Assembly (NCBI GenBank): GCA_021513695.1
Contig: CP084166.1
Coordinates: 1,280,001-1,344,000, forward strand
Direction: 5' to 3'
From: Candidatus Heimdallarchaeum aukensis
Lineage (GTDB): Archaea > Asgardarchaeota > Heimdallarchaeia > Heimdallarchaeales > Heimdallarchaeaceae
Length of the DNA: 64,000 bases
Shown here: piece after piece, positions 6,964-36,623 of the stretch
How positions within the stretch are numbered: the stretch's first letter is position 1
Layout of the letters: every line of letters begins with the position of its first letter
Notes under the pieces: generated by a model
Databases searched by the model: none
Seen by the model: the letters and a program-made list of their open reading frames with translations, nothing else
Told to the model about the DNA's origin: nothing
Position numbers and translations under genes: made by a program

Positions 6964-9198
6964 ATGTTAAGAGGTCGAAAATTGAATAAAAAAACAGTAT
7001 ACATTATAATTTGGAATATACTATCTATTTACATTTTGGTTTCTAGTTTATCATACCATAATGTAATTGCTGAAGATATAACAATAAATGAAAATAGTGG
7101 TGTTTCACCAAAAGATTTGTTTTTGAAAGACCCTACTAATCCTACTCAAGTATTGAAAGCAGAAATAAATCAGAAAAAAGATCAACTTGTTAGCTTTTCT
7201 CCAAGAGTATCGAATGACAAAGAATTTTCTGATGCATTAGATGATGAGAGGAGTTTCTGGACAATTCAGAGTTTTAATAGCTATCCTTATACATATGTTC
7301 AAATTACGGCAACATTATTGGCTATTGGAGACCACACTTATGTCTATGTTGCAAATAGTGTAATTAATAATGTAGGAAAATCTACTGCACAATCAAAAGC
7401 TGAAACTTACAGAGATGAATTTGATGATGTTATTTATCCATCAGATACGTTATACTTTGGCTCTCCTGATGGATATCTAGGAGATATTGATGGTGACCCA
7501 AAAGTAACCATGTTATTACTATCTCTTGATGGGGGTGTTGCTGGTTATTTTGATCCTATTAACGAGTACGTTGACTCGAATTCGAATCAAAGAGAAATGA
7601 TTTATGTCAATTATGATATGTCAGATATTCAATATAGCTTTGCTGTTATTGCCCATGAATTTCAGCATTTAATACATTTTAATCATGATCAAGATGAACT
7701 ATGGTTTATTGATGAAGGGTGTTCTGAATTTGCAACTTATGCCGCTGGATATTGGGCTGGAAATGACAATCTGACTTATTTTGCTGAAGATAATTTTGCA
7801 AATAATCCCATAGATTCTTTGCTTTATTGGAATTACGATAGTGAAGGAGGATACGATGTTAGAATCGATTATGGTGGAGCATATTTGTTTATATTTTATC
7901 TGGCAGAGAAATATGGCTTTCAAATAATTGAAACTTTAGTTGCTGAAACAGCAAACGGAGCTCAAGGAGTTGAAAATGCTCTCATTGATGAAGAGATTCC
8001 TCTCACATTCAACGATTTATATCTAAATTGGATCACTGCATTGACTATCGATGCACCGAATATTGAAGGCGGATTATATGGGTTCGTGAATTTAGACATT
8101 CAAATAAAAGTTAAGACTGAAATTTCAAATGTTCCTACAGAAAGTAATAATGAATTGCATAGATATTATGGTATCCATGTAACTAAAATTACATCCGGAA
8201 GCGATAATATATTCTTTGAAATTTCAGGTTCTGACCAATATGCAATAGGCTTTTCAATTGCAGTTTTGGATTCTGAGGGCTGGCATATTAATCAGTCAAT
8301 AAGTGACATTTCAACTGAATCTAAATTGGAGATAATACAAGGAAAAGACATTTTGCGCATTTATGTTATTACAAGTTTATTAGATCCTGACACACCTTTT
8401 GTTGACAGTAATGATCAATTTGGATTAGGTCCTTACGAATATCTGGACTTGAACATATATGTAGGCAATCCATTATCTATCCAAAATGTACATTCAACTT
8501 ATGAAGAATCAACATGGACATACATTATTTCTGGAGTACGTATTTATGATGTAAACAATACAGAACTCGATAACACTTCTCAAATTGATGTTTTCGTAGA
8601 ATTTAAGGGAAGCGAAGGATTTCAAATGATAAAATCGCTAAATTATTCAGATACAGATTATTGGAATGGTCAATTTTCATTACAAAGTTTTTCAGAAGAT
8701 ACTTATTCAGTAAAACTTTTTGCTAAAAATAGTTCAGCTTTTGGAAGAATCAATCTAGCCGACATTATTGTTGAACACATCATTACTGTAGAAAAACCAT
8801 CTATTGAAATTTCAGGAGATTACTTAGTTATAACTGTTGGAGCTTCTTACACTCAACTTAATGGTTGGGAAAATTTCACTAAATATGCCGAGGTAAAAGC
8901 AGTTATCTATGACATTTCTTCAAGTACTCCTGCAGATGTAATTGATTTATCTTATGACTCTGGATTAGATAAATGGACTAGTGGAAGCTACTATTATGCA
9001 AATCTTACTTATGGTGATTATTACGTGTCTGTAACTTTTAAATATGGTTACCGAACTGTCACATCAAATAATTCAGATATTTTTTCAATCGAGACAGAAG
9101 ACACTACACCTCCAAGCTTTACTCCTTTCCCATTAATATCGACAACTTTAGCAATTGCCACCCTTGTTGCTGTTTTAACCCTGAAAAAGCGAAAATAA
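6964..9198 (+). CDS. secreted zinc metallopeptidase, MA clan (M1-like / Peptidase_MA_2-like), C-terminal membrane anchor
   Basis: N-terminal signal/TM. HEFQH…(16 aa)…WFIDEGCSEFA matches the gluzincin HExxH-x18-E pattern, with the second glutamate inside an M1-like xNEGxA context. C-terminal …PFPLISTTLAIATLVAVLTLKKRK. Confidence 0.6.
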   Translation: MLRGRKLNKKTVYIIIWNILSIYILVSSLSYHNVIAEDITINENSGVSPKDLFLKDPTNPTQVLKAEINQKKDQLVSFSPRVSNDKEFSDALDDERSFWTIQSFNSYPYTYVQITATLLAIGDHTYVYVANSVINNVGKSTAQSKAETYRDEFDDVIYPSDTLYFGSPDGYLGDIDGDPKVTMLLLSLDGGVAGYFDPINEYVDSNSNQREMIYVNYDMSDIQYSFAVIAHEFQHLIHFNHDQDELWFIDEGCSEFATYAAGYWAGNDNLTYFAEDNFANNPIDSLLYWNYDSEGGYDVRIDYGGAYLFIFYLAEKYGFQIIETLVAETANGAQGVENALIDEEIPLTFNDLYLNWITALTIDAPNIEGGLYGFVNLDIQIKVKTEISNVPTESNNELHRYYGIHVTKITSGSDNIFFEISGSDQYAIGFSIAVLDSEGWHINQSISDISTESKLEIIQGKDILRIYVITSLLDPDTPFVDSNDQFGLGPYEYLDLNIYVGNPLSIQNVHSTYEESTWTYIISGVRIYDVNNTELDNTSQIDVFVEFKGSEGFQMIKSLNYSDTDYWNGQFSLQSFSEDTYSVKLFAKNSSAFGRINLADIIVEHIITVEKPSIEISGDYLVITVGASYTQLNGWENFTKYAEVKAVIYDISSSTPADVIDLSYDSGLDKWTSGSYYYANLTYGDYYVSVTFKYGYRTVTSNNSDIFSIETEDTTPPSFTPFPLISTTLAIATLVAVLTLKKRK

Positions 9199-9378: not shown

Positions 9379-10137
9379 ATGAGTCAATCAGAGCTCCAGT
9401 TATCAGATATTTTTAGCGTAGATAAAGATGGAAAGCCCACAATCAAAATTGTTCTTTTTGGTCCCACCTTAGCTGGAAAAACCAGTATGCTTACCGTTTT
9501 TAATGCTTTAAGAAGAATGGAAGATCCAGATCTTATTGTAAGTTCTCTTACCAAAATCCAAGAATATGGTCGAACAGTTTTCTTTGATCACTCTGTTTTT
9601 CAAACACCACCTTTCAAAGGTAAGAAATTTGATCGTCTTCGTTATCATCTATGGACAGTTCCTGGGGAAGAGAGACATAAGGCCCAAAGAGATATTGTTA
9701 TGAGAGGTGTAGATGCTGTTTTACTATTTTTAAATTTTGAAAAAACTGCTTGGGATTCAAATGTTAAAACAGTGAAAGAAGCAAAAGCAAAAATAGGAGA
9801 AAAATTCGGGAAAAAGATTCCAGTTGTTGCGTATATTAATAAATCAGACCTTCCTCCTGAAGAGCGTACAGATAAGCGTGCGTTTATTACATTTTTACAA
9901 GATATTGAAGCTATTCCAAAAGAGAATGTTGCAAACTATATTATGACTGGTAGTTGTCTTAATGCTCGTAATGACTTATTAACCATCTTAAAATCAGAAA
10001 ATCGTGATGAATACCTTGAAAATGAAAGATTGAAAACTAGTAAGCGTCCTGATTCAGTTTGGTTAGTGGTACGACCTATTCAAAAGCTTACACAATTAGT
10101 CGTACAGCAAAGAATGGAAGTTCTACAAGGCATATAA
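9379..10137 (+). CDS. MglA-like small GTPase (Ras superfamily)
   Basis: P-loop KIVLFGPTLAGKTSML. G3 motif is TVPGE, the MglA-type TxxG(Q) variant with Thr in place of the canonical Asp and Glu at the MglA Gln position, within YHLWTVPGEERHKAQRDIVMRGVDAVLLF. G4 motif NKSD. Confidence 0.7.
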   Translation: MSQSELQLSDIFSVDKDGKPTIKIVLFGPTLAGKTSMLTVFNALRRMEDPDLIVSSLTKIQEYGRTVFFDHSVFQTPPFKGKKFDRLRYHLWTVPGEERHKAQRDIVMRGVDAVLLFLNFEKTAWDSNVKTVKEAKAKIGEKFGKKIPVVAYINKSDLPPEERTDKRAFITFLQDIEAIPKENVANYIMTGSCLNARNDLLTILKSENRDEYLENERLKTSKRPDSVWLVVRPIQKLTQLVVQQRMEVLQGI

Positions 10138-21321: not shown

Positions 21322-22494
21322 ATGAGTAATGAAGTATATATAATTGGTACTGGACAAACAAAATTTGGTGAATTTTTTAATTTAAACATTGGTGATCTTG
21401 CTTCTGAAGCAGTTAACAAAGCTATTGAAAACGCGGGAATAGGAAAAGATGAGATAAGAACGCTATTTATTGGGTCAACAGTTTCTAACTCTCTTTCTCA
21501 ATCATCAATAGGCGGAATTTGTACTAGAAGTTGTAGTTTATCTTCTAACGCTTACAGGATTGAATCTGGAAATGCTAGTGGTGCAGCTGCATTCCACCAC
21601 GCTTTTTTAAGCATAAAAAGTGGGTTATATGACGTTGTTGCTGTATTAGGAATTGATAAATTATCAGATTATATCCAAAATGGAACAATTGAAAAAATTT
21701 TAGCTTCATCCATTGATTACCAATGGGAATACGAAATGGGAGCTACCCTCACAGGATTATACTCTTTTCTGACTCAAGCTCATATGGAAGAATATGGAAC
21801 AACATTAGAACAGCTAGCTTATATTCCAACGAAAAACCATCAAAATGGAGTTCTAAACCCAAAAGCTCAATATAGGTATGCTATCCCACTAGAAAAATTT
21901 CTTAATGCAAAAAGAATTGCTGACCCTATTGGAAGGTTTGATGTGGCTACACCTTGTGACGGTGCAGCAGTAGTAATATTAGCTTCTGAAAGATATATTG
22001 AAAATAAAAAACCACATTCTTACAAGGTAAAAATTCTCTCCTCATCAGCTGGTTCAGACACTTTAGCTTTGCAACACAGAGAAAAACTAACAGAGTTAAA
22101 AGCAACTAGACTGGCTGTTAACGATGCTTACAATAAAGCCAAAATTTCAGCAAATGATATTAATGTTGCAGAAGTACATGATTCACACCCAATTGGAGAG
22201 ATATTAGCAATAGAAGATCTTGGTTTGGTACCTAAAGGTGAAGGAGGAAAAGCAACTGTAGAAGGGTTGACTGCGCTAAACGGAAAGATAACTGTTAACC
22301 CAAGTGGAGGATTAAAAGCTAGGGGTGATCCTTTCGGAGCAACAGGAATTGCACAGTTAATAGAAATCGTTGAACAAATAAGAGGAAATGCTGGAAAAAG
22401 ACAAGTCGAGGATGTAAAATATGGGTTAACACAAAATGTCATGGGAACAGGGGTTATGTCCTATGTTTCTATTCTAGGGAGAGGTGATAATTAA
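21322..22494 (+). CDS. acetoacetyl-CoA thiolase (intact copy)
   Basis: Thiolase-fold motifs. The stop overlaps the start of the DUF35 gene (TAATG). Confidence 0.8.
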   Translation: MSNEVYIIGTGQTKFGEFFNLNIGDLASEAVNKAIENAGIGKDEIRTLFIGSTVSNSLSQSSIGGICTRSCSLSSNAYRIESGNASGAAAFHHAFLSIKSGLYDVVAVLGIDKLSDYIQNGTIEKILASSIDYQWEYEMGATLTGLYSFLTQAHMEEYGTTLEQLAYIPTKNHQNGVLNPKAQYRYAIPLEKFLNAKRIADPIGRFDVATPCDGAAVVILASERYIENKKPHSYKVKILSSSAGSDTLALQHREKLTELKATRLAVNDAYNKAKISANDINVAEVHDSHPIGEILAIEDLGLVPKGEGGKATVEGLTALNGKITVNPSGGLKARGDPFGATGIAQLIEIVEQIRGNAGKRQVEDVKYGLTQNVMGTGVMSYVSILGRGDN

Positions 22495-26544: not shown

Positions 26545-26940
26545 ATGCCCTATCAATGGTTAAAAAGAAGCCGCAGAAAATTGTCAGGTGGATTAATTAA
26601 GAAAGCAGCATCAAAGAAAAAGCGAGACATGGGTCGATATCCAGCTGAAACACAAATAGGTGAAAGAAAGCTCAAGATTATAAGGACAAGAGGAGGAAAC
26701 ATAAAACAACGCCTATTACGTGATAATTACGCAAATATTTTCGATCCAGAAGAAAAGATCTCAAGAAAAGTTAAGATTACCAACGTTTTAGAGAACAAAG
26801 CAAACAGAGAGTATGCAAGAAGAAGAATCATTACAAAAGGTTGTATCATTGAAACTGAAATAGGTAATGCTAGAGTAACAAGCAGACCTGGACAAGATGG
26901 ACAAATTAACGCTGTTTTGATTGAAAAGAAAACAGATTAG
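26545..26940 (+). CDS. rps8e: ribosomal protein eS8
   Basis: …KLSGG…[17 protein letters not shown]…[33 protein letters not shown] is closely similar to archaeal S8e. Confidence 0.85.
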
Positions 26941-27005
26941 TTCTCAACCATTTTTAATTTATTTTTCTAAAAGCATTAATATTATTTCTATTATTAATTT
27001 GGATA

Positions 27006-27290
27006 TTATTTGAATCTCTTTTTCTTTTGCTTTCTTTTTTTCTTAGGCTGAAGAGAATATAATATTGTTTCAGGAGATAGATACTCTTGAGCTCCTTCTT
27101 TTAATTTTACGCTTACGTAAGGAGCTTTTACAGGACCAAAAATATCATTTACAACCCCTATATGGACCATTTTCTCTGTTACTACTGCGCTACCTATTTT
27201 AGGAAGTTTATCTGGAGATTTAATAATCAAATTTCCAAGATCACTAATGTGAAGGAATCTTCCTAATTTTTTGATTGGAGGGGCACTCAT
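27006..27290 (-). CDS. gar1: H/ACA RNP protein Gar1
   Basis: LGRFLHISDLGNLIIKS…PKIGSAVV…IGVVNDIFGPVKAPYVSVK Gar1 signature, with a basic K-rich tail. Confidence 0.75.
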   Translation of the reverse strand: MSAPPIKKLGRFLHISDLGNLIIKSPDKLPKIGSAVVTEKMVHIGVVNDIFGPVKAPYVSVKLKEGAQEYLSPETILYSLQPKKKRKQKKKRFK

Positions 27291-27296
27291 CTGTAA

Positions 27297-27623
27297 TCAC
27301 TTTTTCTTTTTTGGTTTTCCAGTTTGTTGTTTTTTCTTTAGTTTTCTTGCTATACTTGCAACATTATTAATTAATTCAGATTTATTTTTTACAGATTCTG
27401 GGTTTATTAGTATTCTTCCTTCACTATTCCACCAATTCTTAGAATATTTTTTTTCTTTTTCAACTATATGATCATAATTAAGATGTTTACATGCGAAAGC
27501 TATTTTTGCTAGAGAACAATCATCTACTGCCTTGTTTTTTGGTACTTTTCTTCCTTGATTTCGCGTAAGTTTCTTGTCAAAATATTCAGGATATAGGACG
27601 AAATACCTCTTTCTACGAAGCAT
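27297..27623 (-). CDS. srp19: signal recognition particle protein SRP19
   Basis: YPEYFDKKLTRNQGRKVPK motif and a basic C-terminus. Confidence 0.7.
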   Translation of the reverse strand: MLRRKRYFVLYPEYFDKKLTRNQGRKVPKNKAVDDCSLAKIAFACKHLNYDHIVEKEKKYSKNWWNSEGRILINPESVKNKSELINNVASIARKLKKKQQTGKPKKKK

Positions 27624-27743
27624 GATAAAAGTTTTGAAACTTTGCTAATAATCTTTTGGGTACTGAACCTAACCTTATTCACTAACAAAAAATCACAAAA
27701 AAGTTAATTCAATTAAAAAAGAAGAGAATAACATAGTTGGTAA

Positions 27744-28211
27744 TCATTTGATAAATTGTATTTCTTCTTCGATATAGTCAAATTCCTCAAATTTGAACTT
27801 CATTTTTTCTTGTTCTTCATGATTTATATCTTCAGAATAGATTAGCCATTCATTAAAAGCTTTGCATAATATTGGGTTGACGGGATTATTAATGCTGCAT
27901 TCGTGAATACGCTCACAAGTAAAGCATCTACAAACCATTGTGTCCCATCCTGTTTCTTCTTTACGAGGAATTGTGAGTAAATAATCTTTAACATTACCAA
28001 TTTCAACTGGGATTTTTAGGATTTTATTGTTATAAAGGAGTTCATCAATTTTCAATTTAATTGTTGAATGATCACCCAGTAAATCAAGTACTTCACTATG
28101 GAGCAATTTTTTCTCTTTTGTTAATTCGATTAGCTCAATAATTTCTTCTCCCAAAGCATTACTATAGCTTTGTTCTACCTTAATTCTTTGTTTAGGAATC
28201 ATAATTCTCAC
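27744..28211 (-). CDS. hypothetical protein (possible winged-helix N-terminus plus CRCFTCERIHEC zinc cluster)
   Basis: 155-aa ORF. Confidence 0.3.
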   Translation of the reverse strand: MRIMIPKQRIKVEQSYSNALGEEIIELIELTKEKKLLHSEVLDLLGDHSTIKLKIDELLYNNKILKIPVEIGNVKDYLLTIPRKEETGWDTMVCRCFTCERIHECSINNPVNPILCKAFNEWLIYSEDINHEEQEKMKFKFEEFDYIEEEIQFIK

Positions 28212-28395
28212 TCACAATGTTTTTAGATCACATTCTATGGACTATACTGTCACATAACTACGTTATCTCTTCAAAAGTTACTATGTAATTTACTATATTT
28301 AAATCTTCATACAGATTCAAAAAACGTATGTGTGTTTTATATGCACAGTATTTTGAAACTGCTCAAAAAATATATTTAAAATATTTAGAATAGAA

Positions 28396-29061
28396 ATGAA
28401 CCCTATTTCAATTTATCATTTTAAGCAAAATTTATCATTTAATAATTTAACAACAACAAAAGGGAAAGTGACCAAAGTGCCACATGATGCAGATTACTTC
28501 TATGATAAAGCAAAAAAACAAGGTTATCGTTCAAGAGCTTCTTATAAACTCTTGCAAATACATGAGAAATTTCATATTTTCAAAAAAAATCAGATAGTTG
28601 TCGATCTTGGCGCATCTCCAGGAGGATGGACTCAAGTTGCATCAGAAAAAGTAGGCAATAATGGTTTAGTTATTGCAATAGATAAAGCCTATATTCCTCC
28701 TTTAAATCTAAAAAACGTGGAAATTTTACAGATGGATATAATGAATGAAATAATAAGTGAATACTTGAAAGACAGATATGGGTTGGTAGATGTTTTATTA
28801 AGTGATTGTGCGCCTAATGTAAGCGGAAAATGGTCTCTTGACCATTCAATTCAAATTATGCTCGCAGAAAGAGCACTAAGAATAGCTGAAGATATCCTGA
28901 AAGACGAAGGTTGGATAGTTGTCAAAGTTTTTCAAGGAGATCAATTTGCTAATTTTATCTCTTATGCAAAAAAAGTCTTCACTACAGTAAAATTATTCAA
29001 ACCACAAGCTTCAAGAAAGAAAAGCGCAGAAATTTATCTGGTTGCAAATACTAAAAGCTAA
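28396..29061 (+). CDS. rRNA 2'-O-methyltransferase FtsJ/RrmJ
   Basis: RSRASYKLLQI…VVDLGASPGGWTQVA SAM-MTase motifs. Confidence 0.85.
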   Translation: MNPISIYHFKQNLSFNNLTTTKGKVTKVPHDADYFYDKAKKQGYRSRASYKLLQIHEKFHIFKKNQIVVDLGASPGGWTQVASEKVGNNGLVIAIDKAYIPPLNLKNVEILQMDIMNEIISEYLKDRYGLVDVLLSDCAPNVSGKWSLDHSIQIMLAERALRIAEDILKDEGWIVVKVFQGDQFANFISYAKKVFTTVKLFKPQASRKKSAEIYLVANTKS

Positions 29062-29081
29062 AGACAAAGAGAGATATAAAT

Positions 29082-30263
29082 ATGAATAAGGAATTATGGG
29101 TTGAAATTAAAGAGGGAAAAACATCTTTCTTTCTAAAGAAAGATTCTGAAACTATCTATGATGCTTCTGTTTTTTACAACCCTAAAATGTCTATAAATAG
29201 AGATTTAGCTCTTTTGCATCTTTATACGATTGGAAATATAACAAAAAAAGGATTAATCATTATTGACCCTTTTGCAGGCTCAGGAATTAGAAGCTTTAGG
29301 ATAATTAATGAGCTTCCTAAAGAATATGTTAAGAAAATAATAATTTCAGATATAAGCGACAGAGCAATTAAGAATGTGAAATTAAATATTGAAAAGTTAT
29401 TCAATGACAAAAGAATTGTTGTTCATCGTGAAGATGCATTTAACATTATAGCTAAACAAATTTTAGATAAAGAAAATATTGATGTTATTGATCTTGACCC
29501 ATTTGGGACACCTATTTCATTTATTGATATAGCTGTTAGAGCTTTGGTAAAAAAAAGCGGATATTTGTTTTTAACTGCAACAGATCATCAAGTTTTGTGC
29601 GGTAAAGAGAAATCTACTTGTTTAAGAGAATATAACAGCAATTCAACAAATAATTATCTGTGTCATGAAATAGCTTTAAGGATTCTAATTTACAATATTT
29701 TGACAAGTTCTGGACGAATTGGTGCGTATGCTGAACCTATACTAGCTCTGCAATTTGAACATTTTTTCAGAATTCACGTAAGAATTGAAAAAGGAAAAAA
29801 AAGAGCAAATGAACAACATAAGGAGATAGGTTTTGTTTATGTTTGTGCTTATTGTAGTTTTTTTGAAACAGAGAGATTAAAAGAAAAAAAGAATTTACAA
29901 AAATGTCCAACATGTAACAAAGAGCTAGAAAAAGTAGGGCCTTTATGGCTAGGGCCTTTAGGAAATAAGAAAAAGGTAGGGGATCTTCTCAACTTTTTAG
30001 ATGAAATTGAATTTGAGCATAATAACAAGAAAAAAATTAATTTAATGTTATCAACATTCAAAGAAGAGATTGAACTCCCTCCAATGTTCTACAACTTACC
30101 TTTTTTATACAAAAAATATAAGAAAAATGGTGTTTCTCCTAATGAAATGATAAACAGATTAGAAAAAAGAGGATATAAGACCACAAGAACAATCTTCGAT
30201 TTTCAATCAATAAGAACAGAGGCACCATATTACGTTGTACATAATGAAATAAAGAAATTATAA
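29082..30263 (+). CDS. trm1: tRNA (guanine26-N2)-dimethyltransferase Trm1
   Basis: DPFAGSGIRSFR and DLDPFGTP motifs, with C-terminal Cys pairs. Confidence 0.85.
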   Translation: MNKELWVEIKEGKTSFFLKKDSETIYDASVFYNPKMSINRDLALLHLYTIGNITKKGLIIIDPFAGSGIRSFRIINELPKEYVKKIIISDISDRAIKNVKLNIEKLFNDKRIVVHREDAFNIIAKQILDKENIDVIDLDPFGTPISFIDIAVRALVKKSGYLFLTATDHQVLCGKEKSTCLREYNSNSTNNYLCHEIALRILIYNILTSSGRIGAYAEPILALQFEHFFRIHVRIEKGKKRANEQHKEIGFVYVCAYCSFFETERLKEKKNLQKCPTCNKELEKVGPLWLGPLGNKKKVGDLLNFLDEIEFEHNNKKKINLMLSTFKEEIELPPMFYNLPFLYKKYKKNGVSPNEMINRLEKRGYKTTRTIFDFQSIRTEAPYYVVHNEIKKL

Positions 30264-30265
30264 GG

Positions 30266-30943
30266 GTGATATTAATTCAAAAAATAATAGTAGGAATAGA
30301 TGAAGCTGGACGAGGACCAGTGCTAGGACCACTAGTCATTTGCGCCTATGCAATTGAAAAAAAAGATTTAGATCAATTACAAATTTTAGGGGCAAAAGAT
30401 TCAAAGATGCTATCTAAAAGCAAGAGAACAGATCTATATCAGAAATTAATTGATATTGCTGTTGATTATAAGACTATCCACCTATCTGCATCGGAAATTG
30501 ATGAAATGAGAAAAAATACAAGTTTAAATGATATTGAACAAAAAATTATGATAAAAGCTGTATTAGGATTAAAGGTTAAACCTTCAGAAATATACATTGA
30601 TGCAGCAGATGTAAAAGAAGAAAGGTTTGGTCTACTATTTAAGAACTATTTTCCAAAAGCTAAAATAGTCTCAAAACATGGAGCAGATAAAACCTTTCCT
30701 GTTGTTTCTGCCGCATCTATTATAGCTAAAGTAGAACGAGATAGAGAAATTGAAAAAATAAAAGAAGAAACAGGAGTTAACATTGGTTCAGGCTATCCTT
30801 CGGATCCTAAAACAAAGAAATTCTTAAATGAATATTATAAGAAACATAAAAAATTCCCTTCTTTTGCTAGAGAATCATGGGATACATGCAAAAAAATAAA
30901 AGAAAAGGATGTACAACAAGCTAAAATAAACGAATACCTTTAG
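30266..30943 (+). CDS. rnhB: ribonuclease HII
   Basis: IVGIDEAGRGPVLGPLVI catalytic motif. Confidence 0.9.
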   Translation: MILIQKIIVGIDEAGRGPVLGPLVICAYAIEKKDLDQLQILGAKDSKMLSKSKRTDLYQKLIDIAVDYKTIHLSASEIDEMRKNTSLNDIEQKIMIKAVLGLKVKPSEIYIDAADVKEERFGLLFKNYFPKAKIVSKHGADKTFPVVSAASIIAKVERDREIEKIKEETGVNIGSGYPSDPKTKKFLNEYYKKHKKFPSFARESWDTCKKIKEKDVQQAKINEYL

Positions 30944-30954
30944 AGATGTGATTA

Positions 30955-31590
30955 ATGGACGAAAAAAATTTAGAAGAATCCTCTATTGAAGATTTTTGGA
31001 AGAAAAGTTCTCCGACCAGAGATTTAATAATTGTTTTCACTGTTATTTACCTGATTCTTACAATATTATCACTAACTTTTTTTGTAGACACAGGATATAC
31101 TGGCATTGTCAAAGTAATTTCAATTAGTCGAATCGTCTTAGAATGGACAGGACAGTATAATTTGTTAGTATTTAAAGGGTACATTTACGAGCTATTTAGC
31201 GCAATTTTTGTTCATGCGAATTTATTACATTTATTATCTAATCTCTTATTCTTCCTAATTTATGGATTAAGAGCAGATGAGAGACTATATACAAAACATT
31301 TTTACATCATATTTATTTTCTCTGCATTATTAGGAAATCTATTTACTCTAGTAGTTTATCCAGTAAATACTGTTTCTTGTGGAGCTTCAGGAGGTGTTTT
31401 TGGGTTACTTGGAGCTGACTTGATTCTGGCTTATGAAGAGGATGAAAACAGATCAATTTGGACTTATCTGGCTTCAGGTGCTATATTTTTATTTATATCT
31501 GCAGGAGTAAATGTGAATAGTTTAGCGCACGGTATTGGACTAGTTTCTGGAATAATATTAACCCTTTTTATTATTAAAAAGAGAAAGTGA
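30955..31590 (+). CDS. rhomboid-family intramembrane serine protease
   Basis: Multi-TM protein. GASGGVFGLLGA (GxSG) and a downstream AHGIG histidine. Confidence 0.65.
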   Translation: MDEKNLEESSIEDFWKKSSPTRDLIIVFTVIYLILTILSLTFFVDTGYTGIVKVISISRIVLEWTGQYNLLVFKGYIYELFSAIFVHANLLHLLSNLLFFLIYGLRADERLYTKHFYIIFIFSALLGNLFTLVVYPVNTVSCGASGGVFGLLGADLILAYEEDENRSIWTYLASGAIFLFISAGVNVNSLAHGIGLVSGIILTLFIIKKRK

Positions 31591-31695
31591 AAGAAAGCAG
31601 TTTAATTTTAAATAAACAAGCCAAAGTAGATTTAAATAGCCTAGTACAAACAGAAGATTTATTTGTTTAAATTGGATTAGAAACTAAGATTCAAG

Positions 31696-32856
31696 ATGAT
31701 TCCGTACCATGTACAAGTTTTGTTAACTAATGTACCAAACATCGAAGAAGTGTCAATCAAAGAACTTATCGAATTAGATGTGAAAAAAATTAAAGGTATT
31801 GGTGACAAATATGCAAAGGTCTTGTACAGAAAAGGAATCAAGAAAGTAAAAGATTTAGCAAAGTTAGATTCTCAAGAAATAGATTTACCCGAAAAAATAG
31901 TTACTAAATGGATAGTTGCTGCAAGAATTATCGTTAATTCACAAAAAGTTCGCAGAACTGGAAAAATTATTTTCTCAGGTCTATCTCAAGCTGGAAAAAC
32001 AAGTATTGTTTATGTATTAAAGTCAATTGTTGAACTGCCTACAGTAACAATGGGGGTAAAACAAGATTTCATTAAATTTGCAGGGCACAATATTCAAATT
32101 TCAGATATGGGAGGACAAAAAAGATTTCGTGAGATTTACCTAACTACCCCTGATTTGTATTTTGAAAGAACAAAATTGGTTTTCTATGTAATTGATATTC
32201 AAAATAAAAAAAGAATAGATGATTCTCTCGAATATCTGAAAAGATTACTTGCAATTTACCGTTACTTGCACGAAAAACCGTTCATTTCTATCTTTTTCCA
32301 CAAATTTGATCCTGATTTATCCTACAACTTAAAATATGATATTCCACCCATAAAGGAGAAAATAGAGAAAATTTTTTCTCACTATACCGAATTTCAGTAC
32401 AATTTTTTCTACACTTCTATTTACAACCCACCTAGCATATACGTGGGAATTGCTTCAACTCTATCAGAGATATTTCCAGTAATGAGTATTTTAGACGTTT
32501 TACTTAAGGATTTTGCAGAATTACACGGTTTTGATGGTTTACTTATAATGGATAGTACAGGAATGTTAATTGGTCAATTCATACGAGGAGAACAAGAATC
32601 ATTGGTGGAAGAAACCTATTCTGCTTTTAAAGAAGCAAGAAAGATTGAAAAAAACCCTTTCGGCAATATTGTTTTACGAAAAAATATAGCAGACCCTCCA
32701 GGAGGAGAGATAGTTGTACAACAAATCTTTTTACCACACAATGATGGTTTTATCTTTTACTGGAAAAAAGAAGATACTGAAATTGATTTATCAGAGTATA
32801 TGTTAAGTGAGATAACAAAAACCCTTAATCCATGGTTGTATAACCTATTATCGTGA
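31696..32856 (+). CDS. Rag/Arf-like small GTPase with N-terminal HhH-like extension and C-terminal roadblock/LC7-like domain
   Basis: P-loop GLSQAGKTS, DMGGQ (DxxGQ), HKFD instead of NKxD as in Rag/Gtr. C-terminal …FDGLLIMDSTGMLIGQF… is roadblock-like. N-terminal IKGIGDKYAKVLYRKGIKKVKDLAKL is HhH-like. Confidence 0.55.
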   Translation: MIPYHVQVLLTNVPNIEEVSIKELIELDVKKIKGIGDKYAKVLYRKGIKKVKDLAKLDSQEIDLPEKIVTKWIVAARIIVNSQKVRRTGKIIFSGLSQAGKTSIVYVLKSIVELPTVTMGVKQDFIKFAGHNIQISDMGGQKRFREIYLTTPDLYFERTKLVFYVIDIQNKKRIDDSLEYLKRLLAIYRYLHEKPFISIFFHKFDPDLSYNLKYDIPPIKEKIEKIFSHYTEFQYNFFYTSIYNPPSIYVGIASTLSEIFPVMSILDVLLKDFAELHGFDGLLIMDSTGMLIGQFIRGEQESLVEETYSAFKEARKIEKNPFGNIVLRKNIADPPGGEIVVQQIFLPHNDGFIFYWKKEDTEIDLSEYMLSEITKTLNPWLYNLLS

Positions 32857-33635: not shown

Positions 33636-36623
33636 ATGCAAAGAACTGGGTTTGTTTTTTTTATTTTCTTAATGCTATCTAGTCCTTTTGTTTATCCTAC
33701 ACTAGCAAAACAAGAAAATAAAATAGACTTTATGTCCAATAATAATAATCAATTGATTTCTTCAATTCAAAATAACAAAAAAATCGTTTATGCTAATGAT
33801 CTTAGTAAAACTTGGGACACTCCACTTTCTGACGAAGAGTTAAAAAAACAATTTTTAGAAGCAGAAGGGAGAGCAATTATTTCTTTTTTCAGTTTTGCAG
33901 AACAGAAAAAAGCGATTGATATACTTGAAGGTCAAGGTATAAATGTAATTCTTAAGTATAATTCTTTTCCTGGACTAAAAATTGAATACAGCTGGAAAAA
34001 AGTAACGGATATTAGTTTAGATAATTTAAGAGTAAAATATGTTTCTCAAATTGGAAAAGATACCTTTTACTCTATTTCATTAGAACAAAATAAAGATACA
34101 ACTTTAACTGGTTTAATCGATCTTTCCGAATTAAGAGCAGCTTTAGAAATAGACTTCCTCCACAATCAAAAAGATAAAAATGGAGACTATCTCTTCGGAA
34201 AGAACATTACAATTGCAGTAATGGATAGCGGTATAGAATCTTCTCTAAAAGGCCTTAATAAAAAATTTAAATATCTTGGAAACGGAGCAATTCAACCTAC
34301 TGATGAGGATAAAATTGTCTACGATTTTAATGCTGTTCCTGGTGAGGATAAAAATGATTTAAGCGGTCATGGTACTCATATAACTTCTATTCTTGCAGGG
34401 AATGGATTTTTCACTGTTGATGGAAAAGTACAATATGAGGGAGAATATGGAATAGTTCCTGAAGCATCTTTGATGAATATTAAAGTTTTGAATGCAAGTG
34501 GTTATGGGAAAGATGAGTGGTTGGTTGATGGTTTTGATAAAGCTATTGCAAATGAGTTAAACATTGTTCCTGATATTATAACTGCAAGTTTAACTTCAAT
34601 TACTTTTTTAAGTGAACATGACCCACTTAATGAAATTGTGCAAGAAGCAGCTAAAAAAGGAATAATGATAGTTACTTCTGCAGGAAATTATGGACCAACG
34701 AGTTCATCTATTGGTTCTCCAGCTGTATGGGAAAACGTTTTATCAATTGGCAGTACCTCAACTATGAAAGATATCTCACTATTCAGTTCAAGCGGTCCAA
34801 CACCATATTTAACAGCTGGAGTGGATTTAGTAGCACCAGGAAGATTAGTTTTAGGATTAAATAGTAGTACAGGAGAAAAGAGATACACATCTGGAACATC
34901 AATTTCAACACCAATAGTTTCAGGAATACTGGCTTTATTAAAACAAGCTTTTCCAGAGTACAACTCTTCACAGTTAGAATCGGCAATATTAAACACAGCA
35001 GACGATTTGAATAAGCCAATAGTTTTTCAAGGAAATGGATTAGTAGACGCTAGAGAAGCTTATTTCTGGTTAAAAAACAACCCAGGGATTACTTTTTCGA
35101 TTCTACCTAAGCGTATTTCACCTGAAAATCTATTCTTTTACTCATGTGTTGAAGGAACACAATCATCTTTCAAAGTGAAAACAATATCTAGTGATGAACA
35201 GCATTTATGGACAAATATAACTGGAGACGATGAGATAGTAGAAATCGGAGAAGAGATAGTTCTTTCAAAGGGTTGGAATATCTTTTCATTTAACATTACT
35301 ATTCCTTATAATAAACCTATTAAGAATTACCAAGCTGTAATAACTTTTACAAATTCTGAAAATTATACTGAAAATATAACAATTAATCTTCAATCTAGAT
35401 ATTACAGAGGATCGATTCTCTTTGATATTAGCCATGATAGTGATATAACAAACAATTCATGGTTTGGTGGATCGTCTCCTTATGGAGCTCATCTATATAT
35501 GGCAAGAATGTTAAAAGATAGAGGTTTTAAGATAAGCACTTTTTCTGAAGGAAACTTTTCTGATGAATTGAGCAAAAATGACATTTTGGTTATTTCAGAC
35601 CCTGAAAAGCATTTTTCTATAGATGAAAGAGAACAGATATATAATTTCATAAAAGACGGTGGTTCATTCTTGCTTTTAGTAGATAGCTATAGAATAGAAG
35701 TAGAATCTGCTAAAGAAGATCCAATTTATCCAAGTAATTATACAGCTATTGACAATTTAGTAGGTTCTCTTGGTATCACAATAGATCCCGATTTCCATTC
35801 AATGCAAACTCCTTATGCTACTGTGTTTTCTAGTGGGCATTCAGATATTACAGATGTAGAGGAAGCATTCTTTTTAGGTTCATGTTTACAATTCGATAAT
35901 GATACAAATTCAGATGTAAAACTTTCTCCTTTATCTGCGATTAATATAGGTACAGAAAAATCTCCGTTCTGGAAAATTACTGGTGTAGTTGGAGAGTATG
36001 GTAAAGGAAAAATAATTGTTTTCGGTTCAGGATACACATTCTCTAATTTTGGATTAATGTATGATGAATTCGATGTAGACTACAGAAATAGAGGTGCAAT
36101 TGGATTAGGGAGTATAAGTTATAACCATTTGTTCAGTGATGAGATGGATAAAAACAATAGAGAACTTATAAATGATACCTTTAGTTGGTTATCGACTTTC
36201 AACAGACCAATAATCGATTTTAGCTTGGATCAAGAAAAGATTCTAATTAGAGAAGAATTTACTATTTCTGTCTCAGTGACTATGACAAGTGAATTTCAAC
36301 AAGGGAATCCATATGCAACTCAATATCTTAATGGAACAATTCTTTTCAGCGACAATTCAATTAGATATGTTGTTCTCTCTGCAGTTGGAGCAGGAATTTA
36401 TGAGCTTTCTACTTCAATTTCGCGTTATGGAGAATTTACGTTATTTATTCCTTTGAAGTTAGAAGGGCACAACCCCACTGACGGGAGAATAGACTTGTTT
36501 TGTGATGTTGAACTTTGGGATCAACAACAAGAAATTGCAAACATAGCAAACCTTGTTCTCACTTTATTTTTCATTGTTCTGCTTGGTTTACCTTTTGTTA
36601 ATTATCGCTTCAAAAATAAATAA
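33636..36623 (+). CDS. secreted subtilisin-like serine protease (S8) with C-terminal membrane anchor
   Basis: Signal peptide. Asp in VMDSGIESS, His in HGTHITSILAG, Ser in GTSISTPIVSG. C-terminal TM plus RFKNK. Confidence 0.85.
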   Translation: MQRTGFVFFIFLMLSSPFVYPTLAKQENKIDFMSNNNNQLISSIQNNKKIVYANDLSKTWDTPLSDEELKKQFLEAEGRAIISFFSFAEQKKAIDILEGQGINVILKYNSFPGLKIEYSWKKVTDISLDNLRVKYVSQIGKDTFYSISLEQNKDTTLTGLIDLSELRAALEIDFLHNQKDKNGDYLFGKNITIAVMDSGIESSLKGLNKKFKYLGNGAIQPTDEDKIVYDFNAVPGEDKNDLSGHGTHITSILAGNGFFTVDGKVQYEGEYGIVPEASLMNIKVLNASGYGKDEWLVDGFDKAIANELNIVPDIITASLTSITFLSEHDPLNEIVQEAAKKGIMIVTSAGNYGPTSSSIGSPAVWENVLSIGSTSTMKDISLFSSSGPTPYLTAGVDLVAPGRLVLGLNSSTGEKRYTSGTSISTPIVSGILALLKQAFPEYNSSQLESAILNTADDLNKPIVFQGNGLVDAREAYFWLKNNPGITFSILPKRISPENLFFYSCVEGTQSSFKVKTISSDEQHLWTNITGDDEIVEIGEEIVLSKGWNIFSFNITIPYNKPIKNYQAVITFTNSENYTENITINLQSRYYRGSILFDISHDSDITNNSWFGGSSPYGAHLYMARMLKDRGFKISTFSEGNFSDELSKNDILVISDPEKHFSIDEREQIYNFIKDGGSFLLLVDSYRIEVESAKEDPIYPSNYTAIDNLVGSLGITIDPDFHSMQTPYATVFSSGHSDITDVEEAFFLGSCLQFDNDTNSDVKLSPLSAINIGTEKSPFWKITGVVGEYGKGKIIVFGSGYTFSNFGLMYDEFDVDYRNRGAIGLGSISYNHLFSDEMDKNNRELINDTFSWLSTFNRPIIDFSLDQEKILIREEFTISVSVTMTSEFQQGNPYATQYLNGTILFSDNSIRYVVLSAVGAGIYELSTSISRYGEFTLFIPLKLEGHNPTDGRIDLFCDVELWDQQQEIANIANLVLTLFFIVLLGLPFVNYRFKNK

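Follow-up and report, generated by a model that had tools for sequence, protein, structure and literature searches.

Evidence for an (HhH)2, Rag-like GTPase and roadblock protein in Candidatus Heimdallarchaeum aukensis and its Asgard relatives

The gene described here, from a window of 64,000 nucleotides of Candidatus Heimdallarchaeum aukensis, most probably encodes a GTPase of the Rag/Gtr family (Asgard 'RagA-like' group) with an additional (HhH)2 domain, flexibly linked, in front of its G and roadblock domains, and we put the probability of this three-domain architecture at roughly 0.9. Pfam, matches in the PDB, a structural model and family profiles support the HhH, Rag-like GTPase and roadblock arrangement proposed in the sequence-only reading, and the motifs quoted there were located at residues 32-51 (IKGIGDKYAKVLYRKGIKKV), 137-141 (DMGGQ) and 202-205 (HKFD). 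Rag-like roadblock GTPases of Asgard archaea are known, and the variant with HhH appears to be common yet undescribed. The coordinates of all features are collected in Table 1.

Table 1. Features of the gene and its predicted product, in positions of the window.
Feature	Residues	Position	Strand	Remark
Whole gene, (HhH)2 - Rag-like GTPase - roadblock protein		31696..32856	+	386 aa plus stop; ORF list, homologues, Pfam
N-terminal (HhH)2 domain	1-88	31696..31959	+	Low-confidence linker to G domain
HhH motif IKGIGDKYAKVLYRKGIKKV	32-51	31789..31848	+	First hairpin G34-I35-G36
Rag/Gtr-like G domain	89-258	31960..32469	+	Gtr1_RagA 63 bits (isolated domain); PDB sequence matches
G1 / P-loop GLSQAGKTS	95-103	31978..32004	+	G95, G100 and K101 invariant in 70 relatives
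G2 / switch I threonine	T118	32047..32049	+	Invariant in 70 relatives
G3 / switch II DMGGQ	137-141	32104..32118	+	G139 and G140 invariant, D137 and Q141 at least 90% (70 relatives)
G4 HKFD	202-205	32299..32310	+	K203 and D205 invariant in 70 relatives
G5 TSI	240-242	32413..32421	+	S241 and I242 at least 90% in 70 relatives
C-terminal roadblock (LC7-like) domain	259-386	32470..32853	+	Predicted topology, Foldseek, C-domain profile
C-terminal motif NPWLYNLL	378-385	32827..32850	+	Family pattern P-W-[LI]-x-N-[LF]-[LF]

An N-terminal extension of about 90 amino acids with an HhH-like motif had been noticed from the sequence, and this was borne out. Residues 1-88 in isolation match the Pfam family HHH_5 (PF14520) with 30.8 bits (cutoff 27) over profile positions 3-54 of 57, and the full-length protein scores 26.3 bits, slightly under the same cutoff. 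The motif of helix, G-h-G hairpin (G34-I35-G36) and helix is present within a predicted five-helix (HhH)2 fold, and G34 is invariant in the family alignment (A4). Modelled alone, the domain reaches a pLDDT of 92.4; the full-length AlphaFold model, built from an 8-sequence alignment, has a mean pLDDT of 72.7 and is of moderate confidence. Residues 85-87 fall below a pLDDT of 50, the domains on either side are well modelled, and the linker between the (HhH)2 and G domains is, as modelled, a flexible tether. A role of the helix of residues 66-85 in membrane insertion, as an amphipathic helix of Arf type, was also considered but dismissed, since this helix is integral to the HhH bundle (pLDDT 93-97).

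The strongest sequence match of the N-domain is the DNA-contacting thumb of Y-family polymerases, and compared with NusA AR2 its profile matched over the entire length (1e-3). Foldseek E-values for the domain lie between 0.02 and 0.1, and the sole match in the N-domain profile search was one degraded fragment of the same Rag-like family. The HHH_5 class comprises the (HhH)2 domains of the Rad51/RadA N-terminus, the Y-family polymerase thumb, the NusA acidic repeats and the C-terminal domain (CTD) of RNA polymerase alpha. These occur in proteins of DNA repair, recombination or transcription, whereas the (HhH)2 domain of the window protein is fused to a Rag-like GTPase. It differs from them further in its second hairpin, which is degenerate (D-L-P instead of G-I-S), and in its last helix, which carries a KW-x3-A-K-[IL]-I signature specific to the Rag-like family.

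The distribution of the fusion was analysed in 158 sequences, comprising the window protein, 8 homologues from a word search (P0001-P0008) and 149 representatives of 50%-identity clusters from an exhaustive search. An HMM of the N-domain matched 70 of these 158 closest sequences (157 database relatives and the window protein), and the fusion is no isolated case. About 78 of the 158 have a short N-terminus like that of LokiRagO, the homotetrameric RagA-like GTPase of a Lokiarchaeota member (PDB 8yl2, released 2025-09-10). The remaining N-terminal modules, verified in Pfam, were TIR_2 (P0120), DUF4062 (P0140) and a folliculin/longin-like domain (P0096), and some relatives with HhH and G domains carry a coiled-coil or low-complexity tail in place of the roadblock domain. 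On a neighbour-joining tree of the G domain, presence of the N-domain requires 9 parsimony changes, compared to a mean of 49 (minimum 40) for shuffled labels, and the window protein lies within a clade of 32 tips, 30 of which bear HhH. Named HhH-bearing members belong to the Heimdallarchaeaceae, Hodarchaeales/Hodarchaeota, Thorarchaeota, Odinarchaeota, Lokiarchaeia and Helarchaeota, and several Asgard lineages hold more than one distinct HhH-bearing cluster. Given the 70 carriers, the 9 versus about 49 changes and the six lineages, the HhH fusion is therefore old, inherited and pan-Asgard, its presence following the G-domain tree.

Modularity is a known trait of small GTPases in Asgard archaea. 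Nearly half of the closest relatives, in at least six Asgard lineages, have inherited (HhH)2 in a variable N-terminal slot that is elsewhere occupied by longin/folliculin-like, TIR or DUF4062 modules. A genome scan with narrow patterns yielded 49 loci, all in Asgard (Promethearchaeota) assemblies except for two in a 'Deferrimicrobium' MAG, which are probably binning contamination. The same narrow patterns found one locus in the complete genome of Ca. Heimdallarchaeum endolithica; since the patterns are narrow, a single locus per genome is no evidence against paralogues. Within the 64-kb window no second Rag-like paralogue was found.

Upstream of the gene the window holds FtsJ/RlmE, Trm1, RNase HII and a rhomboid protease, and downstream a CxxCxxCC protein followed by a large S8 subtilase. 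The block S8e-SRP19-Gar1-x-FtsJ-Trm1-RNase HII-rhomboid-Rag recurs in relatives from the Heimdallarchaeaceae that are 43-54% identical, two of which have the rhomboid gene in the opposite orientation, and conservation of the FtsJ-Trm1-RNase HII-rhomboid-Rag part of the block is confined to this family. The neighbours of distant HhH-bearing relatives are housekeeping genes of other kinds, EMG1 and S19e or TFIIB. Because they share none of the neighbours seen in the window, the conserved block is read as lineage inheritance and not as an operon. A functional link to the rhomboid protease, which is adjacent in five of five family members, was considered and dropped as unsupported, since its orientation flips and the entire block is syntenic. 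No partner gene with a link to DNA or RNA adjoins consistently beyond the Heimdallarchaeaceae synteny block, and the locus has no LAMTOR-like, Ragulator-like or roadblock neighbour. The window also contains an MglA-like gene at 9379-10137, 22 kb upstream, which had been recognised beforehand and is confirmed by a match of 1.4e-14 to MglA; the MglA-like and Rag-like GTPases are barely similar to each other.

Judging from Gtr1-Gtr2, RagA-RagC and LokiRagO, the G domain would cycle between GTP and GDP as a switch, and on the same precedents, among which LokiRagO is a homotetramer, the roadblock domain would mediate dimerisation or higher oligomerisation. Most speculatively, the (HhH)2 domain of the Heimdallarchaeaceae orthologue may serve for targeting by binding nucleic acid, be it DNA or structured RNA, at the phosphate backbone in a non-sequence-specific manner, whereby an oligomeric switch dependent on nucleotide state would be placed on chromatin or a ribonucleoprotein and not on a membrane. 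The full mechanism, putative nucleic-acid binding included, is put forward tentatively.

The (HhH)2 fold class also includes purely protein-binding modules, e.g. NusA AR2. It is likewise conceivable, at somewhat less than even odds, that the domain is a module for protein-protein docking or oligomerisation, resembling NusA AR2 with the RNA polymerase alpha CTD or SAM-type domains, and that it recruits an effector or regulator, or aids assembly of the oligomer, without any binding of nucleic acid. Several observations speak for nucleic acid and against docking in the window protein and its orthologues. The N-domain of the window protein is basic, with a net charge of +7 (the roadblock domain has -9), its G-I-G hairpin is canonical, and its best matches, headed by the polymerase thumb, are DNA-contacting HhH modules. 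Within the orthologue group of the Heimdallarchaeaceae the G-h-G hairpin is present in 7 of 7 members and a positive charge of the N-domain in 6 of 7. In addition, no candidate docking partner is encoded by a gene conserved alongside. Family-wide binding of nucleic acid is argued against by a mean N-domain charge of only +0.8 (range -13 to +8; zero or negative in 17 of 40), by retention of G-h-G in just 22 of the 70 HhH-bearing members and by HHH_5 matches at E <= 0.01 in just 11 of the 70. For this orthologue, weighing these data, we would place a nucleic-acid tether slightly ahead of protein docking. That the (HhH)2 domain truly tethers a Rag-family, roadblock-oligomerising switch to chromatin or to a ribonucleoprotein such as the ribosome, and that such tethering is ancient and pan-Asgard, we consider unlikely. 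If true, Rag-type GTPases would have coupled the nucleotide or nutrient state to the genome or the translation machinery before the eukaryotes, which would later have re-targeted them to lysosomal membranes via Ragulator.

The sequence of the G domain leads us to conclude that it is Rag-like, by a modest margin over Arf. Gtr1_RagA (PF04670), the profile suggested for this comparison in the sequence-only reading, is indeed the best Pfam model, with 3.9e-21 and 76 bits (cutoff 22) over profile positions 1-214 of 232. The Arf profile (PF00025) comes second with 59.7 bits and covers positions 5-112 of 174 only; the Arf match thus ends before G4. For the isolated G domain the scores are 63 bits for Gtr1_RagA and 57.3 for Arf, and only Gtr1_RagA spans G4-G5. 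Among PDB chains, phmmer placed two Asgard proteins on top (8yl2 at 1.5e-37, then 8zla at 4.9e-22); human RagA matched residues 89-300 (1.4e-10, 44.5 bits), Arf1 only residues 87-188 (about 4e-9, 39.9 bits), and Gtr1 was also matched.

The G1-G5 motifs are complete and invariant or nearly so in the 70 relatives, which shows the domain, at the level of its motifs, to be switch-competent. Both the DxxGQ motif (DMGGQ) and the Rag-type HKxD (HKFD) that had been pointed out are present and conserved in relatives. HKFD is the Rag-type variant of NKxD, RagA having HKMD at the aligned site, and its H202 is at least 90% conserved in alignment A4. The G5 motif continues as TSIY in the window protein (Y243) and as TSIW in RagA (FRTSIWD aligned). 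Residues 110-121 of switch I have a pLDDT below 50, in line with a mobile switch.

It is improbable that the G domain is that of a generic Asgard Arf-like or SR-beta-like GTPase, with a likeness to Rag that is convergent or stems from shared Arf/Rag/SR-beta ancestry. Such an identity would agree with the names of the relatives at NCBI and JGI, which throughout are 'ADP-ribosylation factor-like protein', 'GTPase SAR1 family protein' or 'hypothetical', and with the closeness of the scores, since the Arf profile is merely 6-16 bits under Gtr1_RagA, Arf1 chains come close to RagA in the phmmer search and one relative (P0089) scores marginally higher with Arf. However, the Gtr1_RagA profile passes through G4 and G5 into the C-domain, where the Arf match has already ended, and it is matched by all 70 relatives. 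The motifs are HKxD rather than NKxD and the Rag-type TSI[YW] at G5. The Arf-family features of a full-length profile match, NKxD and an N-terminal amphipathic helix are all lacking, and the protein has no Gly2 (N-terminus MIPY...), CAAX box or lipid-anchor motif. The C-terminal roadblock domain occupies the Rag/Gtr position relative to the G domain (about 300 columns, TM about 0.7), and a published tree has 'Arfl' proteins of this kind from Asgard archaea outside the Arf clade, in the vicinity of Rag (PMC11914678).

Directly after the Rag-like G domain, residues 259-386 are supported as a roadblock domain, since fold prediction and profile homology concur. The predicted topology is alpha-beta-beta-alpha-beta-beta-beta-alpha, that of a roadblock (pLDDT 70-77), and the C-terminal motif includes an invariant W380 and an N383 conserved at 90% or more in alignment A4. 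By Foldseek the whole model matches LokiRagO with E = 3e-19, a target-normalised TM of 0.80 and 30% identity over 304 columns, and RagA, RagC, Gtr1 and Gtr2 with a TM of about 0.65-0.74 and 14-20% identity. These last alignments run full-length across about 300 columns, so the G and roadblock domains would stand in the same relative arrangement as in Rag chains; the earlier proposal of a roadblock fold for the C-terminal domain was thereby supported. The Pfam profile Robl_LC7 (PF03259), which had been proposed as a check, did not match the single sequence or the isolated C-domain, but a profile built from 27 family C-domains did reach roadblock proteins. With it, E-values were 1.7e-9 for the C-domain of LokiRagO, 3-5e-3 for dynein light chain roadblock/LC7, which was covered almost end to end, 4e-3 to 9.5e-3 for solved Robl_LC7 proteins from Asgard archaea, and 0.2-0.4 for MglB and the C-domain of Gtr1 (0.2-0.3 for MglB alone).

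The open reading frame has an ATG start and exactly the extent first noted. Its stop-to-stop frame opens at 31681, just 5 codons 5' of the ATG, so the start codon is well defined. A word-indexed search gave 7 and then 8 homologous proteins, with little gained outside the Heimdallarchaeaceae, whose orthologues range from E = 3.5e-238 down to 1e-96. The orthologue of Candidatus Heimdallarchaeum endolithica is 89% identical, and the genome it comes from is complete (3.3 Mb). When 1.84 billion representatives were searched exhaustively with a profile, 2254 relatives reached E <= 1e-3, of which 87 reached E <= 1e-30, and together with the orthologues these rule out a chance ORF. The idea that faulty annotation or assembly produced the N-terminal extension, for instance through a misplaced start codon or fusion to an ORF upstream, could appeal to precomputed Pfam annotations that list no N-terminal domain for any homologue, but judged by sequence conservation it is already refuted, because the extension with its G-I-G hairpin is kept in homologues down to 42% identity, its length and motif are conserved in independent assemblies from six Asgard lineages to about 25% identity, it folds confidently by itself, and the frame opens so shortly before the ATG. 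Rfam has no family inside or around the gene. The GC content of the window is about 30%, and TATA-like strings in the AT-rich gap upstream of the gene are given no weight because in a genome of 30% GC they are uninformative.

Among known systems, MglA and MglB likewise pair a small GTPase with a roadblock fold. They are separate polypeptides, MglB acting as a GAP, whereas the window protein carries its roadblock domain in cis, like Rag/Gtr. Of the solved structures, that of LokiRagO belongs to the closest relative, which phmmer aligned with residues 57-302 of the window protein and which shares with it the motifs YVIDIQ, HKFDP and TSIY. Before its P-loop LokiRagO has about 40 residues; these contain no HhH and show a weak alignment to the final helix of the window N-domain. 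LokiRagM, the second Lokiarchaeota member in the PDB (8zla / 9m28), is without any N-terminal extension, its alignment beginning at chain residue 9. The literature search found no paper on either set of PDB entries.

The architectures described for Rag-like proteins of Asgard archaea are GTPase-RB, longin-GTPase and longin-GTPase-RB (Tran et al. 2024, PMC10933270). These are the same Rag-like, Arf-annotated, roadblock-fused Asgard GTPases to which the window protein belongs, and the longin/folliculin-like N-terminal variants of that study also occur among its relatives. An HhH N-terminal domain is mentioned neither in that paper with its supplement nor in the 2025 study of 'Arfl' proteins (PMC11914678), and a targeted full-text literature search found no description of an HhH-Rag-like GTPase fusion. 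Absence there is no proof, but since none of these sources mentions such a domain, the architecture appears undescribed, and this part of the earlier claim stands. The annotation 'ADP-ribosylation factor-like protein' masks both the affinity to Rag and the extra domain.

Rag GTPases are eukaryotic nutrient-sensing switches that recruit TORC1 to lysosomes, and reconstructions of the origin of eukaryotes draw on 'eukaryotic signature proteins' that include the Asgard relatives of Rag. We know of no TOR in Asgard archaea. Eukaryotic RagA-D and Gtr1/Gtr2 have the same arrangement of G domain and C-terminal roadblock, HKxD and TSI[WY], and like the window protein no lipid-modification motif, but they are without HhH and only 14-20% identical to it. 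They work only as heterodimers, which Ragulator/EGO anchors at lysosomes or vacuoles, and signal to TORC1; of this context, a paralogous partner or a LAMTOR-like neighbour, nothing is evident in the window. Set against these membrane-tethered eukaryotic Rags, the (HhH)2 domain is a clean and widespread clue to the targets of pre-eukaryotic Rag-type switches, and provides an experimental handle on where such switches act in a cell free of lysosomes.

The N-terminal position of the Rag-like protein is occupied by modules other than the HhH domain in six of its close database relatives (P0120, P0140, P0096, P0090, P0091 and P0122). These include a TIR_2 domain in P0120 (1.3e-14), DUF4062 in P0140 (3.6e-15) and a folliculin/longin-like module in P0096. 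The fusion of TIR, Rag-like and roadblock domains is unusual by itself. Variation extends to the other end of the protein: several HhH-bearing relatives in the diverse alignment A2 carry a coiled-coil or a low-complexity, Pro/Lys-rich C-terminus instead of the roadblock domain, and the core of HhH and G domains is therefore paired with more than one type of tail.

The last roadblock helix of the Rag-like protein is closed at the extreme C-terminus by a conserved NPWLYNLL motif (residues 378-385). The family pattern is P-W-[LI]-x-N-[LF]-[LF], with W380 invariant in the diverse alignment A4, and this motif may be a determinant of interaction or oligomerisation.

The gene itself ends a Heimdallarchaeaceae synteny block (S8e, SRP19, Gar1, hypothetical, FtsJ/RlmE, Trm1, RNase HII, rhomboid, Rag-like GTPase) that is conserved between the window and the loci L001, L003, L004 and L005, with the rhomboid gene inverted in two relatives. 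The S8 subtilase 3′ of the Rag-like gene, one of two of about 1000 aa each in the window, has an orthologue that is retained close to the Rag-like GTPase at both L001 and L004. It displays an additional ABC_transp_aux/DUF4350 match, and its residues 621-809 weakly match the IFT52 GIFT domain.

Two Rag-like loci (L025 and L029) were found within a MAG labelled as the bacterium Candidatus Deferrimicrobium. These are most likely Asgard contigs binned in by contamination, horizontal transfer being the less likely source. In an Asgard (Promethearchaeota) MAG, a 900-aa protein (L009:1811-4510) strongly matches the CD36 family (3.4e-74), a typically eukaryotic family of lipid scavengers; its gene adjoins a folliculin/longin-type Rag-like GTPase.

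The window also harbours a direct tandem duplication of 4201 nt, with 99.76% identity between the copies and a spacing of 4185 nt, which could be either a recent genuine event or an artefact of assembly.

Features of the window and their positions
Feature	Position	Strand	Remark
744-aa ORF	6964-9198		no Pfam match; upstream of MglA-like gene
MglA-like small GTPase	9379-10137		
Actin-like gene	10255-11301		ALP_N and MreB-like_C; MglA-like gene directly upstream
S8 subtilase, full copy	12870-15911	minus	N-terminal ~600 aa within duplication
Tandem duplication	14093-18293 and 18278-22478		
HMG-CoA synthase, two copies	16088-17134 and 20273-21319		within duplication
Thiolase, two copies	17137-18333 and 21322-22494		duplicated
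S8 subtilase, truncated copy	18276-20096	minus	from duplication
Synteny block	26545-32856		
NPWLYNLL motif	32827-32850		
S8 subtilase, downstream	33636-36623		

No MglB/roadblock gene was recognised beside the MglA-like gene, the product of which matches MglA of Myxococcus and Thermus at 1.4e-14.
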